From: an uncultured Methanosarcinales archaeon
Lineage (GTDB): Archaea; Nanobdellota; Nanobdellia; Woesearchaeales; JACPBV01
Assembly (NCBI GenBank): GCA_964577685.1
Contig: CAZNZT010000008.1
Coordinates: 761 to 64,760 of the forward strand
Reading direction: 5' to 3'
Length of the DNA stretch: 64,000 nt
The notes under the pieces were generated by a model. That model saw nothing but the letters and a program-made list of their open reading frames with translations. It was not told the DNA's origin and searched no databases. The translations under genes were made by a program, and so were the position numbers. Shown in pieces: positions 2,529-58,052 of the stretch. Positions within the stretch are counted from its first letter, which is position 1. Each line of letters begins with the position of its first letter.

Positions 2529-4154
2529 ATGCCAAGCGAAATAAGAAGAAGGATTGGAAGAATAGAAGATCTGTCTAAGGCTGATGTCACTTGTGAGTAT
2601 GCCATTACAGCTCTAAAACAAGTGGCGATGCTCTTAGAGGGTGGAGATAAAATAGTACTTGATATACTGCAGAGGGATCATCTACCTGATATTGAAAGAG
2701 ATGCACTAGAATCATACCTGAGAGATGAACATAGATGGTTTAGCGGATGGGCATATATAGCCCTATTAGAGATATCAGAAGAAATAACAACTGAAGAACA
2801 AAGAGCAGGAAAAAGCTTCTATGAAATAATCGGCCAGAACACATTTACTCCAACATTTTTTCAAATAAATGTAGCACGATTACTTTACTCTGTATCTAGA
2901 TTATACAAAAGAGCTAGTATGCACGTAGGTAATTTTACTGATCTGATCACTCTCCATTGTGAAGAAATAGGAAGAGGAGAAATAGTCATAACACGAAGGA
3001 CAAAGGATAGATGGAGAAAAGAACTTAAAAAAAGATTAGGGGATTTAGCATTAACTCAACTAAGACACGACTGCGAATTGACAAGAGAATTTCTTATTTC
3101 TGTCCCAACTATCTATACTGACAAACATGGAAATCCAAAACCACCCGCTGTGCTTATTGACCACTCTAAGTGTGAAGGAAAGGGAGACGGTGCCTGTGTC
3201 TATCATCTCAGATACAAACCCCAAACATTAGAGGAAAGGGCTATTTACTTGTGGGAGTTACCAAGACGTATAAAAAGATTTTTTGATGGTGTTGCAGAGA
3301 TGAATATAAGACTTCAACAAACTCAAGAAAGATTGCGTGTAAGTTATGAAAGGGAAGTAGAAGCTAAAACTGCAAGGGCAAGAATGGAAACGCTAGTAAG
3401 TACTATAGAAGGGATGGCTCATGATGTTGGCAATAGTCTAAATCTCCTTCTGGGTGCAAATAACATAATACTCAGTGATCTAGAAGAAATGTTAAAAAAA
3501 GTTAGAAAAAGATATAGTGAAACAATGGGCGATCAAGAAAGTGTAAATAAAGCAATGCAAGAATTATACCCGTATTTTCAACGAATTGGACAAGCTGTTA
3601 ACACTATTTATAATAGGGGTCAAGAGATAGCAAGTCTTGGAGAGAATATTCTAGATATGTCAAGAGGTGCGGAATCAAAGCCAGGACAATATACACTCCA
3701 AGAGGTTATAGAAGAAGCACTTGGATCGTGTATGGAAGAAGCTTATTTAAGAAAGGATAGTGGCATAGAGGTTAAAAAAAGATATGGCAACCCAATTGAA
3801 TTATTAGGTAGAAGAGGCCTTATAAAACAGATGTTTAGGAATATTATCCAAAATTGTTGTGAAGCAATGGACTACAAGGGAAAACTAAGTATAAACGTAA
3901 ACCCGAGGGGAAATGGTGTTGAAATTAGGATAGAAGATAATGGAAGAGGAATGACAGAAGAGCAACTTAGAATGGCATTCAAAGAAAGATTCACTACTAA
4001 AGATCCATCCTTACATAAATTTAGTGGCACTGGACTAATTCAAATCGCCAATATTGTCAGATTACATAATGGCAGTATTAGATTAGAAAGCAAAGTAGGA
4101 GAAGGGACAAGCTATGTAGTATGCCTACCTTACGAAAGGAAAAAAAATGCTTGA
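2529..4154 (+). CDS. Sensor histidine kinase (cytoplasmic, no obvious TM; HisKA plus HATPase_c)
   Basis: H-box 'MAHDVGNSL'. N/G boxes 'IQNCCEAM', 'EDNGRGMTEEQ', 'GTGLIQIANIV'. Its stop overlaps the start of the next gene (ATGCTTGA). Confidence 0.8.
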   Translation: MPSEIRRRIGRIEDLSKADVTCEYAITALKQVAMLLEGGDKIVLDILQRDHLPDIERDALESYLRDEHRWFSGWAYIALLEISEEITTEEQRAGKSFYEIIGQNTFTPTFFQINVARLLYSVSRLYKRASMHVGNFTDLITLHCEEIGRGEIVITRRTKDRWRKELKKRLGDLALTQLRHDCELTREFLISVPTIYTDKHGNPKPPAVLIDHSKCEGKGDGACVYHLRYKPQTLEERAIYLWELPRRIKRFFDGVAEMNIRLQQTQERLRVSYEREVEAKTARARMETLVSTIEGMAHDVGNSLNLLLGANNIILSDLEEMLKKVRKRYSETMGDQESVNKAMQELYPYFQRIGQAVNTIYNRGQEIASLGENILDMSRGAESKPGQYTLQEVIEEALGSCMEEAYLRKDSGIEVKKRYGNPIELLGRRGLIKQMFRNIIQNCCEAMDYKGKLSINVNPRGNGVEIRIEDNGRGMTEEQLRMAFKERFTTKDPSLHKFSGTGLIQIANIVRLHNGSIRLESKVGEGTSYVVCLPYERKKNA

Positions 4155-6747: not shown

Positions 6748-7776
6748 ATGTTAGAAAAGAACCAAGTAGAAAAGATTAAAAAAGAATTAGAAAGTTGTAA
6801 AAATCCGCTTTTCTTCTTCCATGATGACCCGGATGGACTTTCATCATTTCTACTCCTATATAGGTATATAAGAGAGGGACATGGAATAGTATTCAAAGCA
6901 AAACCAAGTCTAAATGCAAACTTTGTAAGAAAAGTAAGAGAATATCAACCAGATAAGATATTTATCCTAGATATACCTATCGTAGATCAGGAATTCATAG
7001 ACAAAGCCAATGTTCCAATAATATGGATAGACCACCACCCGCCATTAGAAAGAAAAAAAGTGAATTACTTTAATCCAAGAATAAAGAATAAGAATGACAG
7101 GACTCCTGTTACAAGAATATGCTATGATGTTGTAAACAAGGATATATGGATTGCTATGGTCGGATGTATTGGGGATTGGCACATCCCAGACTTTTTTCAG
7201 GAATTTAAAAAAAGGTATGGATACATGGTAGATAAAAAAACAGAAGATATAGGAAAAATCTACTTTAAAACAAAACTCGGACTACTTGTAAGAATTTTCT
7301 CCTATATACTAAAAGGAAAAACCAGCGAAACAAACAAGTGCTTTAAAATATTAACAAGAATAGATGATCCAAAAGAAATACTAGAAAAAAAAACACCAAG
7401 AGGAATTTTTATTTACAAAAAATTTGAAAGAGTAAACAAAGAATATGAAACTCTCCTAAATGAAGCATTAAAACACAAAAAAGAAGATAAACTACTAATA
7501 TACATATACAAAGAAAACAAAATGAGTTTTAGCAGTGATTTATCAAATGAACTAATATTTAGATTTCCAGAAAAGCTAGTGATTGTAGGAAGAGAAAAGA
7601 AAGATGAAATCAGAATGAGCCTAAGATCTACAAAATTATTATTACCAAAAATCATCCAAAGGGCATTGATTGGACTGGTAGGTTATGGGGGAGGCCACGA
7701 ACATGCTTGCGGGGTAAACATAAAAAAAGAAGATTTCGACATATTCATAAAAAGAATAAGAGAACAGATAGGTTAA
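6748..7776 (+). CDS. DHH/DHHA1 family phosphoesterase (NrnA/RecJ-like nanoRNase / pAp phosphatase)
   Basis: DHH motifs 'FFFHDDPDGLSS' and 'IWIDHHPP'. DHHA1 motif 'GYGGGHEHACG'. Confidence 0.75.
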   Translation: MLEKNQVEKIKKELESCKNPLFFFHDDPDGLSSFLLLYRYIREGHGIVFKAKPSLNANFVRKVREYQPDKIFILDIPIVDQEFIDKANVPIIWIDHHPPLERKKVNYFNPRIKNKNDRTPVTRICYDVVNKDIWIAMVGCIGDWHIPDFFQEFKKRYGYMVDKKTEDIGKIYFKTKLGLLVRIFSYILKGKTSETNKCFKILTRIDDPKEILEKKTPRGIFIYKKFERVNKEYETLLNEALKHKKEDKLLIYIYKENKMSFSSDLSNELIFRFPEKLVIVGREKKDEIRMSLRSTKLLLPKIIQRALIGLVGYGGGHEHACGVNIKKEDFDIFIKRIREQIG

Positions 7777-7810: not shown

Positions 7811-7893
7811 GCGTCGGTGGTCTAATGGATATATTACCATAAATGACAACGGCCTTCCAAGCCGTTTATCCGGGTTCAAGTCCCGGCCGACGC
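7811..7893 (+). tRNA. tRNA-Gly (anticodon UCC) carrying a roughly 12-nt insertion in the D-arm region
   Basis: Acceptor GCGTCGG/CCGACGC with discriminator A. Anticodon arm ACGGC-CTTCCAA-GCCGT. T-arm CCGGG-TTCAAGT-CCCGG. The D region is 30 nt where about 18 is expected. Confidence 0.7.
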
Positions 7894-7897
7894 ATTT

Positions 7898-19509: not shown

Positions 19510-19655
19510 TGGGGACGCCGGAATTTGAATCCGGGACACCTAGATCTCCATTCTTCATTGGCCCAAAGCCTCAACAGATCATAGGAACTTCAGTCTAGCG
19601 CTCTCCCAGGCTGAGCTACGTTTATGGTTTTGGAACAATCAATTCCAAAATCCCC
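19510..19655 (-). tRNA. tRNA-Phe (GAA) with two introns: a 30-nt intron in the acceptor stem (after nt 5) and a 42-nt canonical 37/38 intron
   Basis: Minus-strand exons: GGGGA|CG TA GCTC AGCCTGGGA GAGC G CTAGA CTGAAG|A TCTAG GTGTC CCGGA TTCAAAT TCCGG CGTCCCC A. Inserts lie at plus 19621-19650 and 19546-19587. Confidence 0.75.
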
Positions 19656-22190: not shown

Positions 22191-23234
22191 CTAAGACAAA
22201 ACAAGAATCTTTCTTGTCAAACTTTTATGAACAAATTGTGAAAATTCTTTTTTTATATTAAAACCAGCTTTTTTTACTAATTCCCTATATTTAACATAAT
22301 GAGGAAATAAAACTACTGCCCTCTTGCCTAAGATCCTTCTCAAATTTCTTAGGAATCTAAAATAAAAATTTTCTAGATTTTTTATTTTTTCATTTTTACC
22401 ATCTTGCTTCAAAGATATTTTTTTGTTTCTTCCATCCTCGCTAACCCAAATTGATGTATTCAATCCATATGGTAAATCAGTTACAACAAAATCATATCTT
22501 TTTTTTATACTGAGCGCATCTCCGTTAAATAGTCTATAATCCCTTATACCAAAAAAGTCAAGATTCACTCTCGCTCTTCTTAACATCTCATCATACAAGT
22601 CATAACCAACAGGCCTTAATCCCATCAAACCAGCTTCAATAAGAATTCCCCCGGCACCACAAAATGGGTCCATAACCTCGCCCCTAGCACCGCACAGATT
22701 AATCAAAGCTCTTGCTAATCTTGGGTCTAAGGCAGTTGGATGTTGTTCTGGTCTTTTATGTGCCCTTCTAGATTCAAAATCATGTTTTATCTCCATAATA
22801 AGTCTTGTAACATAAATCCTTTTATTCGTTGAAAAAAACTCAATTAATGTTTCTGGGTCCTTAAGATTAACCTTGGGTGTACTGAGTTGATTCCATATAA
22901 GCTCCCCAAGCTTACTCTCGCTTATTCTTTTCATAGATTTCTCCAATCTATAGAACCTCACACAAAAATTTTTTTTGTAAATGGGTTCCCAATCAAAATT
23001 TTTTATATCAGAGAACAAATCACCAAAAGTTGTTTCAAACAAAAGCCGATATATTCTCTTTGTATAAGATAATCTATTGGCTTCATCTATATTATCTGTC
23101 TCTAAGAACAACAAGTTATTAATCAACCTATACCTTGTTACATCTAACAAGGACAAAACCTCTTCTTTAGATAAATCCAGATTTTCCTTTGACAACAAAA
23201 ACACATATACCATACAGACAAAAATAAAAGACAA
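22191..23234 (-). CDS. THUMP-domain tRNA (guanine-N2)-methyltransferase (Trm11/Trm14 family)
   Basis: SAM-MTase motif I 'DPFCGAGGILIEAG' and motif IV 'VVTDLPYG'. N-terminal THUMP-like region. The true start may be the internal Met 'MVYVFLLSKEN'. Confidence 0.75.
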   Translation of the reverse strand: MSFIFVCMVYVFLLSKENLDLSKEEVLSLLDVTRYRLINNLLFLETDNIDEANRLSYTKRIYRLLFETTFGDLFSDIKNFDWEPIYKKNFCVRFYRLEKSMKRISESKLGELIWNQLSTPKVNLKDPETLIEFFSTNKRIYVTRLIMEIKHDFESRRAHKRPEQHPTALDPRLARALINLCGARGEVMDPFCGAGGILIEAGLMGLRPVGYDLYDEMLRRARVNLDFFGIRDYRLFNGDALSIKKRYDFVVTDLPYGLNTSIWVSEDGRNKKISLKQDGKNEKIKNLENFYFRFLRNLRRILGKRAVVLFPHYVKYRELVKKAGFNIKKEFSQFVHKSLTRKILVLS

Positions 23235-29093: not shown

Positions 29094-29143
29094 AAAACCA
29101 ACAAAGAATTCTAATGCTAAAAAGTAAAACATAGATAGCATAA

Positions 29144-29256
29144 TAGCGGAGGATGGATTTGAACCATCGACCTATGGGTCTCTGAGGCAATTTCCGAGCC
29201 TTATGAGCCCATCGGGCATACAGGCCTTAATGGTCTCCTGGCTGCCCCACTCCGCT
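29144..29256 (-). tRNA. tRNA-Met (CAU), initiator-like (A1:U72, GGG/CCC anticodon stem), with two introns: about 17 nt in the D-loop and 22 nt at the canonical 37/38 site
   Basis: Minus strand: AGCGGAG TG GGGC [AGCCAGG..insert..TAT] GCCC G ATGGG CTCATA|AGGCTCGGAAATTGCCTCAGAG|A CCCAT AGGTC GATGG TTCAAAT CCATC CTCCGCT A. Confidence 0.7.
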
Positions 29257-29370
29257 ATTAACAAAGACAGAAAAGAATTATTATTTATAAAACTATTGGA
29301 AATAGCCATATAAAATCTTAACGAAAAGTTTTAAATAGTCACAAAAAATTCTAAACAAGTATGCAAGTAT

Positions 29371-29518
29371 GCCGCGGTGGCACAACATAGAGTGGTGCTT
29401 CCATTTTATGTGCAATCTGGTACTGCGCGAGATTGCTAAGCACAACTAAGTGCTTATGATTCCTCCGCAGATATCTCGTGTCCGAAAGGACTTCTGGGTT
29501 CAAATCCCAGCCGCGGCG
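29371..29518 (+). tRNA. tRNA-Ser (GCU), 148 nt: a 34-nt canonical intron plus a roughly 28-nt insertion in the D-arm region. Long variable arm.
   Basis: GCCGCGG ... CGAGA TTGCTA|AGCACAACTAAGTGCTTATGATTCCTCCGCAGAT|A TCTCG TGTCCGAAAGGACTT CTGGG TTCAAAT CCCAG CCGCGGC G. Two D-arm-like hairpins (GCAC..GTGC and GCA ATCTGGTAC TGC) show that extra sequence was inserted 5' of the anticodon stem. Confidence 0.65.
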
Positions 29519-34062: not shown

Positions 34063-34332
34063 TTATTCCTCCTTCTTTTGTTCTTCTTTGGATCCCTCCT
34101 CCTTAAAAGATATCTTTTCGGTAACAGAATAAGCCTTACCGGTAAACTTAGATTTACATTTCCTACACTCCCATATGCCAATGGCCAATCTCTTCACACT
34201 AACAGAGGAACAATAGGGACACTTATGTCTTTTTCTTTGTTCCGATTCTATTTTACCGAATCTGTGCTTTACCGTCCTACCATAACGAGCCCCAAATCTT
34301 CTTATAGAACCTAATTTTTTTGTTTCTACCAT
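34063..34332 (-). CDS. rpl37ae: 50S ribosomal protein L37Ae (eL43)
   Basis: 'MVETKKLGSIRRFGARYGRTVKHRFGKIESEQRKRHKCPYCSSVSVKRLAIGIWECRKCKSKFTGKAYS' follows the eL43 consensus (KKVG..G.YG.RYG, C4 zinc ribbon). Start taken at the internal Met. Confidence 0.85.
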   Translation of the reverse strand: MVETKKLGSIRRFGARYGRTVKHRFGKIESEQRKRHKCPYCSSVSVKRLAIGIWECRKCKSKFTGKAYSVTEKISFKEEGSKEEQKKEE

Positions 34333-34363
34333 TTTTACATTGTTCTGTTGAAAAATATTCAAA

Positions 34364-34486
34364 TGGGGCTACTCGGATATTCAGTCGCTAACTTTGATTA
34401 ACGACATTTGAACCGAGGTCGTCCGCTTTTTTTTAGACAACTCTAACCCAAAGCGGAAAGGATATTCCAAGCTACCCCATAGCCCC
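34364..34486 (-). tRNA. tRNA-Pro (UGG) with two introns: 19 nt at the canonical 37/38 site and 29 nt inside the T-arm (between T-loop and 3' T-stem, about position 60/61)
   Basis: Minus strand: GGGGCTA TG GGGT AGCTTGGAATA TCC TT TCCGC TTTGGG|TTAGAGTTGTCTAAAAAAA|A GCGGA CGAC CTCGG TTCAAAT|GTCGTTAATCAAAGTTAGCGACTGAATAT|CCGAG TAGCCCC A. Confidence 0.7.
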
Positions 34487-34547
34487 ACTCTCCTTTAGAA
34501 AATAGAAACGATTTATAAATTTAACGGAATTTATTAATCAAGAAAAA

Positions 34548-42807: not shown

Positions 42808-43509
42808 ATGATAAGCGTTATCCTAATAGAACCAGAAAATCCAGGAAACATAGGGGCTATTGCAAGAGTAATGAAAAATTTTAATTTTAAGGATTTAATT
42901 CTAATCAATCCAAAATGCAATCATTTATCAAAAGAAGCACAGGATAGAGCAACACATGCAAAAAAAATACTAAAAAAAGCAAAAACAAAACCAATCTCTT
43001 ACCTAAGAGGCTTTGATTATATAATCGCCACAACAGCAAAACTAGGAACTGACTTCAATATAGCAAGGCAGCCTATAAGCCCAAAAGACTTAGCACGAAA
43101 GCTAGAAAAAATAAACAAAAACATGAAAATAGGCCTAATGTTTGGCAGAGAAGGAACAGGCTTAAGAAACAAAGAAATTTTAATGTCAGATTTTGTTGTT
43201 ACAATCAACACATCCAAAGAATATCCAACCATGAATATAAGTCATGCAGTAGCTATTGTGTTATATGAAATATTTCAAATATCAAAACAAAAGAAGATAA
43301 ATCAGCATATTCTTTTTGCAAAGAAAAAAGAGAAAGAGAACATATTAAAACTTCTAAATGAGATATTAAATAGGCTTAATTTTAAAACAGAATCAAAAAA
43401 GAAAACCCAGGTATTAGTCTGGAAAAGAGTCTTAAATAAAGCATTCCTAACGAAAAGAGAAGCATATGCCATATTCGGGTTCCTGAGAAAGTTGGAAAAG
43501 TTTAAATAA
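42808..43509 (+). CDS. SPOUT-class RNA 2'-O-methyltransferase (TrmJ/TrmH-like)
   Basis: 'ISVILIEPENPGNIGAIARVMKNFNF' N-terminus like TrmJ. Knot region 'GLMFGREGTGLRN' and 'NISHAVAIVLYEI'. Confidence 0.7.
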   Translation: MISVILIEPENPGNIGAIARVMKNFNFKDLILINPKCNHLSKEAQDRATHAKKILKKAKTKPISYLRGFDYIIATTAKLGTDFNIARQPISPKDLARKLEKINKNMKIGLMFGREGTGLRNKEILMSDFVVTINTSKEYPTMNISHAVAIVLYEIFQISKQKKINQHILFAKKKEKENILKLLNEILNRLNFKTESKKKTQVLVWKRVLNKAFLTKREAYAIFGFLRKLEKFK

Positions 43510-56801: not shown

Positions 56802-58052
56802 ATGCAAGAGATACTGGAAAAAGTTCTAAAAAAAATAAAACCAACAAAAGAAGAGGAACTAAAGATAAATAAAAAAATAGAAGGCCTCATAAAAAAAATA
56901 AACAAAAACCTAAAAGATGCCAAAGCAATCCTAGGGGGGTCTGGTATCAAGGGAACATGGCTAAAAAATGCCTATGACTCAGATATATTTGTAAAATTTA
57001 ACTACAAGAAATATAAGAACAGAAGCAATGAGTTATCTGATATACTAGAGAAAATTCTCAAAAAAAGAAGAATAAAATTCACAAGACTGCATGGTTCCAG
57101 AGATTATTTCCAGATTAAAGAAAAAAATTTTACATTCGAAATAGTACCCATACTAGATATTAAAAAAGTAGAAGAAGCAAAGAATATTACTGATGTAAGT
57201 CCACTACACGCAGATTGGGTGAACAAAAAAGTAAAAGGCCTCAAAGACGATGTAAGGCTATTAAAACAATTCTGCAAAGCAATAAATGTATATGGTGCAG
57301 AGAGTTATATAAAAGGGTTCTCAGGTTATGTCTGTGAAATATTAACAGCATACTACAAAGGATTTACAAATGTAATTAAAAATGCATCAAAATGGAAAGA
57401 AAAAACGATAATAGATACCGAAGGATACTGGAAAGGGAAAAACATCTTATCCGAACTTAATAAATCCAAAACAAGATCACCAATAATAATAATAGACCCT
57501 GTCCAACCAGATAGAAACGCTGCTGCTGCTGTAAGCCGAGAGAATTTCATTAAGTTTATAGAAAGATGTAGGGAATTCCTAAAAAACCCTTCAGAAGAAT
57601 TCTTTGAAATTAAGAAAATAAATAAAAAAACCTTAGAAGAGAAGTCAGGAAAAAACCACCTGATAATAATAGAAGCAAAAACAAAAGAGGGCAAAAAAGA
57701 CATCGTTGGTTGTAAATTAATAAAAGTAATAGAATTCATCAAGAAAGAATTAAAAAAACATGAATTCAATATACTAGATTATGGGTGGGAATGGAATAGA
57801 AAAGTTTTATTTTACTTTATCATTAAAAATGAAAAAAAGCCAGATACAATAAAAATAACAGGACCACCAATAAAAGAGAAATTTCATACCAAAAACTTCA
57901 AAAAAAAGCATAGAAATACATTCATAGAAAAAGGGAGAATATACGCCAAAGTAAAAAGAAAATTCAAGGAACCACATAGCCTAATCAGATTCTTATTAAA
58001 AAGTGAATATATAAAGGATAAAGTTAGCTCAATAAGGATAAAAAATGAATGA
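56802..58052 (+). CDS. cca: Archaeal class I CCA-adding enzyme (tRNA nucleotidyltransferase)
   Basis: 'AILGGSGIKGTWLKNAYDSDIFVKF' (pol-beta NT motif GS...D.D) plus a long C-terminal tRNA-binding region. Confidence 0.8.
   Translation: MQEILEKVLKKIKPTKEEELKINKKIEGLIKKINKNLKDAKAILGGSGIKGTWLKNAYDSDIFVKFNYKKYKNRSNELSDILEKILKKRRIKFTRLHGSRDYFQIKEKNFTFEIVPILDIKKVEEAKNITDVSPLHADWVNKKVKGLKDDVRLLKQFCKAINVYGAESYIKGFSGYVCEILTAYYKGFTNVIKNASKWKEKTIIDTEGYWKGKNILSELNKSKTRSPIIIIDPVQPDRNAAAAVSRENFIKFIERCREFLKNPSEEFFEIKKINKKTLEEKSGKNHLIIIEAKTKEGKKDIVGCKLIKVIEFIKKELKKHEFNILDYGWEWNRKVLFYFIIKNEKKPDTIKITGPPIKEKFHTKNFKKKHRNTFIEKGRIYAKVKRKFKEPHSLIRFLLKSEYIKDKVSSIRIKNE

Follow-up and report, generated by a model that had tools for sequence, protein, structure and literature searches.

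A segment of 123 nucleotides on the minus strand of the 64-kb window (the whole stretch of DNA analyzed here; G+C 33%) carries the parts of a proline tRNA with the anticodon UGG, interrupted once in the anticodon arm and once in the T arm. This raises the question of whether the locus is a working gene whose transcript would be spliced at both places and, if so, to which class of introns the two inserts belong. We find that the best explanation, to which we assign a probability of about 0.9, is a functional woesearchaeal tRNA-Pro(UGG) gene with two introns of the archaeal BHB type, one of 19 nt at position 37/38 and the other of 29 nt at position 59/60.

The interrupted tRNA-Pro(UGG) gene

We parsed the locus into three exons and two inserts:

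34364..34486, minus strand: the whole tRNA-Pro(UGG) gene, with a pre-tRNA body of 123 nt, from reading of the sequence and in-silico splicing
34447..34486, minus strand: exon 1, Sprinzl positions 1–37, with the acceptor 5′ strand, the D arm, the anticodon stem 5′ strand and U32 U33 U34 G35 G36 G37
34428..34446, minus strand: intron 1, 19 nt, at the canonical site 37/38, UUAGAGUUGUCUAAAAAAA, parsed by hand and checked by script
34407..34427, minus strand: exon 2, positions 38–59, with A38, GCGGA, the variable loop CGAC, the T-stem strand CTCGG and U54 U55 C56 A57 A58 A59
34378..34406, minus strand: intron 2, 29 nt, in the T-loop at 59/60, UGUCGUUAAUCAAAGUUAGCGACUGAAUA, from a strict hBHBh′ motif and ortholog covariation
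34364..34377, minus strand: exon 3, positions 60–73, with U60, the T-stem 3′ strand CCGAG, the acceptor 3′ strand UAGCCCC and A73

Joined end to end, the parsed parts reproduce the 123-nt sequence exactly. They supply an acceptor stem (GGGGCTA/TAGCCCC), an anticodon stem (TCCGC/GCGGA) and a T-stem (CTCGG/CCGAG); on the 5′ side, the acceptor strand GGGGCUA is followed by UG, a D arm composed of GGGU, an 11-nt loop that holds G18 G19 and A21, and UCCU (with a G10:U25 pair), and then by U26. The gene ends at the discriminator A73 (position 34364), and CCA is not encoded. The anticodon loop is interrupted as TTTGGG|19 nt|A, and the T-loop TTCAAAT is split by 29 nt. Deletion of both inserts yields a 75-nt RNA that regains the canonical cloverleaf, in which anticodon loop and T-loop are 7 nt each, and that ARAGORN calls tRNA-Pro(tgg); with one insert left in place, the program returns either no call or a wrong one. 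The calls obtained once only the T-loop intron is removed, namely tRNA-?(ttgg), or Phe(aaa) with the -i option, are mis-parses of this kind. Brute-force single deletions followed by ARAGORN were uninformative, as many wrong splices were accepted. The spliced RNA aligns end to end with intron-free orthologs from related loci (numbered with the prefix L; 88% identity to that in L014 and 90.7% to that in L042), and the pre-tRNA has a predicted folding energy of −52.1 kcal/mol (z = −5.75), with 0/200 shuffled sequences folding equally well. A preliminary description had given the coordinates, the insert lengths of 19 and 29 nt and the anticodon UGG as they are found here, on what is the minus strand, and its identification of the gene as tRNA-Pro(UGG) agrees with the ARAGORN call on the 75-nt product.

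A split, tri-split or permuted tRNA is ruled out by the three exons, which are contiguous and collinear within 123 nt, and group I or group II self-splicing introns are ruled out by the lengths of the inserts, just 19 and 29 nt. Introns of the latter kinds in tRNA genes span hundreds of nucleotides with a catalytic core and are represented by models in Rfam; no Rfam intron model matched in or around the locus. On this sequence evidence, 34364–34486 is a real tRNA-Pro gene with two short introns, in the anticodon loop and the T-loop, of the kind predicted to be spliced by proteins.

The T-loop intron at position 59/60

Intron 2 and its flanking exons form a strict 3-4-3 hBHBh′ motif. Its outer helix h is the 5-bp T-stem; its central helix H (UUCA/UGAA) is paired at 4/4 positions between U54–A57 (34412..34409) and the intron UGAA (34383..34380); the two bulges are A58 A59|U (5′) and UA|U60 (3′); and the inner helix h′ is an 8-bp hairpin stem (GUCGUUAA/UUAGCGAC, 34405..34384). 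This is the layout of a non-canonical 59/60 intron, with the T-stem as its outer helix and positions 54–57 on the 5′ side of its central helix. In the isolated T arm, the BHB fold (−15.2 kcal/mol) lies just 1.6 kcal/mol above the minimum free energy structure (−16.8 kcal/mol) and is thus readily accessible. Upon shuffling of the 29-nt intron, a 4/4 central helix arose in 2% of trials, and one combined with a 4-bp inner helix in 0.04%. We also scanned the whole window for strict BHB motifs and submitted each of the 65,041 resulting spliced sequences to ARAGORN; the sole match was the T-loop intron of tRNA-Pro, in a scan that is not a census, as it passed over intron 1 with its G·A mismatch and the window's other tRNA genes with their relaxed motifs. 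We considered whether the intron might hold cargo such as a C/D-box guide RNA and dismissed this by eye, given that the 29 nt are too short and comprise only the BHB and the hairpin.

The junctions (AAAU|G...AUAU|C) are such that cuts at 58/59, 59/60 or 60/61 all generate an identical mature RNA, and the choice of 59/60 among these three registers comes from BHB geometry. The preliminary description had written the intron at 60/61, and that register, like 58/59, gives the same mature sequence as 59/60. However, with the cut position of EndA within a bulge as known from the literature, only the 59/60 register puts both cuts symmetrically after the second nucleotide of the 3-nt bulges around a fully paired 4-bp helix (UUCA/UGAA), and in this register the central helix is paired at 4/4 positions in 17/18 orthologs. 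We accordingly consider either of the other registers improbable, and BHB geometry locates intron 2 inside the T-loop at 59/60 and not between the loop and the 3′ strand of the T-stem. Hence, the 29-nt T-arm intron of the preliminary description exists, whereas the position assigned to it, after the complete T-loop, has to be revised.

The anticodon-loop intron at position 37/38

The length of intron 1 is exactly what the BHB requires (1+4+4+4+4+2 = 19 nt). Its 5′ bulge is G36 G37|U, its inner hairpin UAGA-GUUG-UCUA and its 3′ bulge AA|A38; in the central helix, the intron 3′ strand AAAA is paired with U32, U33 and U34 and opposes G35 in a G·A mismatch. The motif is therefore slightly relaxed, with exact 3-4-3 geometry and 3/4 pairs plus the G·A. 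The lowest-energy fold in silico is instead one in which the A-run has slipped, with an 8-bp helix and a 3x3 internal loop (−15.5 kcal/mol, versus −5.2 kcal/mol for the BHB register). Owing to the G35·A mismatch, an endonuclease of relaxed specificity may be needed at this site. Seven of the compared orthologous genes, this window among them, have a 37/38 intron: in 4/7 (L013, L026, L045, L046) G35 pairs with a C and the central helix is 4/4, and in 3/7 (this window, L008, L011) the 19-nt layout with the G·A mismatch is seen. The canonical 19-nt intron proposed earlier is thus confirmed with exact BHB geometry and one mismatch, and its removal is needed for the tRNA-Pro(UGG) call. The absence of a BHB-like structure at the junctions had been named at the outset as what would speak against the two introns; instead, a 3-4-3 BHB spans each splice-site pair, strict in intron 2 and slightly relaxed in intron 1.

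Host, gene neighborhood and promoter

Pfam searches place the gene, as described earlier, between rpl37ae and aRF1 in a ribosomal/translation-related cluster. Downstream on the same strand are rpl37ae, a weak match to RpoP, prefoldin beta and UPF0147; divergent from tRNA-Pro are aRF1 (upstream), a SprT-like protein, a histone and aIF5A. Two candidate transcription elements flank the gene:

34512..34525, minus strand: putative promoter, with a BRE-like GTTAAA followed by the TATA box TTTATAAA, at −39..−26 from the mature 5′ end
34350..34363, minus strand: T-rich 3′ trailer UUUGAAUAUUUUUC, of putative role

In L004, L016, L056, L030 and L032, a TTTATAAA/TTTAAAAA box likewise precedes the orthologous gene by approximately 30–40 nt. 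The T-rich trailer may serve as an oligo-T terminator, or it may be removed by RNase Z. The likely start of rpl37ae, an ATG at 34332 (minus strand), lies ~31 nt past the 3′ end of tRNA-Pro, and an alternative TTG start at 34362 would abut the tRNA. The rpl37ae-rpoP-prefoldin genes may be co-transcribed with tRNA-Pro, or a promoter overlapping the tRNA 3′ end may be used. The putative BRE/TATA promoter, together with the ortholog covariation presented below, supports the expression and splicing of tRNA-Pro.

The aRF1 of the window is identical to that on the JGI metagenome contig Ga0190334_1010636, and the same contig has an identical tRNA gene. When metagenome sequence was scanned for exact copies of the T arm, both uninterrupted and split by the insert, only the intron-bearing Ga0190334_1010636 was recovered, and no intron-free allele. 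Beyond this, we retrieved 73 related aRF1 loci, almost all from MAGs, with identities of up to 76% and labeled for the most part Candidatus Woesearchaeota, Nanoarchaeota or Nanoarchaeia. As judged from these aRF1 relatives, the host is a member of the Woesearchaeota (DPANN, class Nanoarchaeia). Many TPA_asm bins (L004, L008, L012, L015 and others) with an aRF1 62–76% identical to that of the window are labeled 'uncultured Methanosarcinales archaeon'; from its neighbors in the match list, this label on related MAGs looks like a taxonomic mislabel.

Orthologs, covariation and intron history

Using spliced alignment and motif searches in the aRF1-related loci, we compared 30 genes, including the one in this window. 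The orthologous tRNA-Pro(UGG) was found in 29 related loci, in 28 of which it is on the opposite strand upstream of aRF1, and in one (L044) downstream on the same strand. A loose regular expression for 59/60 introns produced mostly false positives in coding sequence, from which the real ones were chosen by their tRNA context; L023 was one false match, removed before alignment. The census of introns is as follows:

T-loop intron at 59/60 (19–91 nt): 19/30 genes
Anticodon-loop intron at 37/38: 7/30 genes
D-loop intron (17–37 nt): 4/30 genes (L003, L015, L021, L034)
Acceptor-stem intron: 3/30 genes (L008, L011, L037), identified by eye

Three introns per gene are present in L008 (~3730–3910, minus strand) and L011 (minus strand), where an acceptor-stem intron (GGGGCU|~48 nt|...GCUA) accompanies those at 37/38 and 59/60; in L037 (~3093–3230, minus strand), the acceptor-stem intron is the sole one.

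We then aligned the trimmed T arm and intron ends of 18 genes selected by T-arm consensus and T-stem complementarity. Pairing of the central helix was not among the selection criteria, and the covariation in it is hence not circular. In this alignment (n=18), pairing is complete (100%) in the T-stem, where two pairs show compensatory change, and reaches 98.6% in the central helix; the pair between position 57 and the intron is A:U in 11 genes and G:C in 7, without a single mismatch. The covariation score is 0.350, as against 0.153±0.022 in shuffles, of which 0/500 reach it, and has its maximum at slide 0. The inner helix h′ is paired in 64% of cells in the strict register, which indicates that many of the orthologs are of the relaxed type. 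The intron interiors (19–91 nt) are of unrelated sequence; that is, across the 18 orthologs the motif is kept by compensatory change while the interior of the intron drifts. The exons flanking both introns also show compensatory changes: across intron 2, the T-stem has U50:A64 in this gene versus C:G elsewhere, and across intron 1, the anticodon stem is TCCGC/GCGGA versus TCTGG/CCAGA in orthologs.

In a neighbor-joining tree of aRF1, carriers of the 59/60 intron appear in nearly every clade, interleaved with intron-free genes, a distribution that fits either an ancient intron lost several times over or a hot spot of recurrent insertion. Some of the T-loop introns are long, G+C-rich and contain internal hairpins far beyond what a BHB needs (89–91 nt in L013 and L046, 85 nt in L056 and 68 nt in L058). 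In L010, from a related Nanoarchaeota MAG, a tRNA(CAU) gene (6981–7117, plus strand) has a 24-nt intron at 59/60 (H = UUCA/UGGA) and further inserts, and the 59/60 site is thus used in more than one tRNA family of this lineage.

Other tRNA genes of the window and their detection

The window has in total about 9 introns in 5 tRNA genes, the other four of which are:

7811–7894, plus strand: tRNA-Gly(UCC), with a 12-nt D-loop intron ATATTACCATAA; central helix AUGG/CCAU, fully paired
19510–19655, minus strand: tRNA-Phe(GAA), with a 30-nt acceptor-stem insert after nucleotide 5 (GGGGA|UUUUGGAA...CCAUAAA|CG) and a 42-nt intron at 37/38
29143–29257, minus strand: initiator-like tRNA(CAU), AGCGGAG...CUCCGCU A, anticodon stem GGG/CCC, interrupted in the D-loop and immediately 3′ of the anticodon loop; parsed by hand only
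29371–29518, plus strand: tRNA-Ser(GCU), class II, with variable arm GUCCGAAAGGAC, G73, a 28-nt D-loop intron and a 34-nt anticodon-loop intron

Once spliced, tRNA-Gly (72 nt) and tRNA-Ser (86 nt) are called Gly(tcc) and Ser(gct), respectively; unspliced, the former is miscalled tRNA-Tyr(ata) by ARAGORN and the latter is missed by both ARAGORN and Rfam, as is the initiator-like tRNA. For tRNA-Phe, Rfam matched only model positions 5–66 (at 19515–19621); the BHB motifs of this gene appear relaxed when parsed by hand, and the strict-BHB search gave no solution for it. As for standard finders, then, two of these four genes are missed, one is miscalled and one is matched in part. The unspliced tRNA-Pro locus had no match in ARAGORN, with or without intron options, and none in Rfam, either at gathering thresholds or at E<=10 on a 351-nt slice. 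The same split is seen among its orthologs: ARAGORN recognizes the 7 intron-free genes as tRNA-Pro(tgg), with scores of 54–56 bits against the Rfam tRNA model for the three examined in this way (L014, L029, L042), whereas of the intron-bearing genes ARAGORN misses 9/9 tested and Rfam 3/3 tested among these. The non-canonical-intron models of tRNAscan-SE 2.0 were trained on Crenarchaeota/Euryarchaeota and Thaumarchaeota, and not on DPANN (PMC8450103).

Alternative explanations of the locus

The locus might instead be a decaying pseudogene, or a gene with insertions that are never removed, with a working tRNA-Pro(UGG) elsewhere in the genome. Its rejection by standard tRNA finders and the imperfect central helix of intron 1 would be in keeping with this, and the inspection covers 64 kb of the genome, beyond which a second, intron-free copy is possible. 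However, all four stems are intact and display compensatory substitutions relative to orthologs, the boundaries of the inserts fit BHB geometry exactly, R57 covaries with the 3′ end of the intron across 18 genomes, and the syntenic position is conserved along with the promoter-like element. Moreover, all 5/5 tRNA genes in the window are similarly interrupted, so that in this genome interruption is the usual state and does not point to decay. Against this evidence we hold a pseudogene, or unremoved insertions, to be highly improbable.

Integration classically targets the 3′ half of tRNA genes, which would suit a view of the T-loop insert as an integration scar and not a spliced intron. The literature, too, lists integration among the ways in which tRNA genes may have become disrupted (PMC3239211). 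Yet the insert is not flanked by direct tRNA repeats and has no integrase nearby; it is a compact hairpin with a perfect BHB; and clades throughout the aRF1 tree carry unrelated inserts of 19–91 nt at precisely the same nucleotide. We give an integration scar almost no weight as an account of the insert; integration may bear on the origin of the intron, and not on its present nature. A functional tRNA-Pro(UGG) gene with two BHB introns remains the reading that we adopt in what follows.

Predicted maturation of the pre-tRNA

From the established archaeal pathway, we infer the following steps, along with their enzymes, their order and the expression of the gene. Transcription would start from the BRE/TATA promoter ~30 nt upstream, with possible read-through into rpl37ae. 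The pre-tRNA would fold into a cloverleaf in which the anticodon arm and the T arm are each lengthened by an intron hairpin, presenting at the exon-intron junctions two 3-nt bulges around a 4-bp helix, a structure that EndA would recognize wherever it is placed in the tRNA. EndA would cut once per bulge (37|i1, i19|38, 59|i1 and i29|60) to leave 2′,3′-cyclic phosphate and 5′-OH ends, and a ligase of the RtcB type would join the three exons. The ends would be trimmed by RNase P and RNase Z, and CCA would be added by the CCA-adding enzyme encoded in the window (56802–58052). With U54–A57 paired to intron 2, the elbow between the T-loop and the D-loop is unable to form in the precursor, and steps that depend on the elbow probably come after splicing. 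For the strict T-loop BHB, even an enzyme of strict specificity might suffice in principle; the mismatched 37/38 motif is more likely than the T-loop BHB to require relaxed specificity.

Neither EndA nor RtcB was detected among the 20 ORFs of the 64-kb window scanned with Pfam, and a tblastn search with M. jannaschii EndA as the query returned no match in the window or the fetched loci. Genes for tRNA maturation that the window does encode include a THUMP + UPF0020 methyltransferase (Trm-G10/Trm11-like; 22191–23213, minus strand), a SpoU-family methyltransferase (42808–43509, plus strand) and the above CCA-adding enzyme, which Pfam assigns to class I (plus strand).

Relationship to known archaeal tRNA introns

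Multi-intron tRNA genes of the Crenarchaeota/Thermoproteales and Thaumarchaeota have reportedly been described by Sugahara et al. (2007/2008) and by Marck and Grosjean (2003); they are reviewed in PMC4090602, and tRNAscan-SE 2.0 handles them (PMC8450103). The gene described here is like these in its use of recurrent non-canonical sites, including 59/60 and often in company with 37/38, in the variable presence of introns among relatives and in being missed by generic finders; unlike it, they belong to a different superphylum and mostly have an (alpha-beta)2 EndA with the Crenarchaea-specific loop. Intron 1 resembles the canonical archaeal/eukaryal 37/38 intron in its site and its minimal hBHBh′ layout, where intron and anticodon pair, but differs from it in having G35·A plus three A:U pairs and an A-run that permits the slipped, non-BHB fold, 10 kcal/mol more stable in silico.

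The site 59/60 is itself a listed position of non-canonical tRNA introns in archaea (PMC4090602), and non-canonical BHB introns are well known in Crenarchaeota, Thaumarchaeota, Nanoarchaeota and some others, with up to three per gene (PMC4090602; PMC8450103). In ARMAN-2, another DPANN archaeon, strict-BHB introns interrupt the pre-tRNA-Pro(GGG) at 53/54 and 59/60, and in vitro the cognate endonuclease cleaved a 59/60 intron in the pre-tRNA-Cys of this archaeon (PMC3239211). The present gene shares with that of ARMAN-2 a DPANN host, the proline tRNA family, a T-loop intron exactly at 59/60 and a strict hBHBh′ motif. It differs in belonging to the Woesearchaeota rather than the Micrarchaeota, in its anticodon (UGG versus GGG) and in the site of the second intron (37/38 versus 53/54); the EndA of ARMAN-2 is of the epsilon2 type. 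DPANN lineages more generally show raised tRNA gene disruption (PMC5829648). Kaneta et al. (2018) predicted tRNAs for one Woesearchaeon, took incomplete predicted tRNA sets to suggest undetected disrupted genes and reported an alpha4 EndA with an L3 loop in several DPANN lineages (PMC5829648). The novelty that the preliminary description implied for the arrangement is therefore overstated, two-intron tRNA genes being unusual neither for the lineage nor for archaea.

In terms of its sequence, the gene has all the features of the archaeal BHB tRNA intron family, and it leaves the established picture of archaeal tRNA splicing unchanged. A bolder proposal, which we put forward tentatively and consider more doubtful than probable, is that the 59/60 intron is an ancient, selected feature of the Woesearchaeales (e.g., a splicing checkpoint ahead of elbow formation, or a shield of the 3′ half against integrating elements), with an intron load in the lineage as high as that of the Thermoproteales and an alpha4-type EndA. 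If true, such a load together with an alpha4-type EndA would make the accepted tie of non-canonical introns to EndA subunit architecture less secure, and the tRNA complements of DPANN MAGs would be systematically under-called.

For Woesearchaeota MAGs, tRNAs would be under-counted in inferences of completeness and codon usage unless BHB-aware models trained on DPANN are used. The tRNA-Pro locus offers a data set for intron gain and loss, in which the combinations at four sites (acceptor stem, D-loop, 37/38 and 59/60) vary while synteny is kept, and the series of its orthologs informs the substrate range of the little-studied splicing endonucleases of DPANN archaea.
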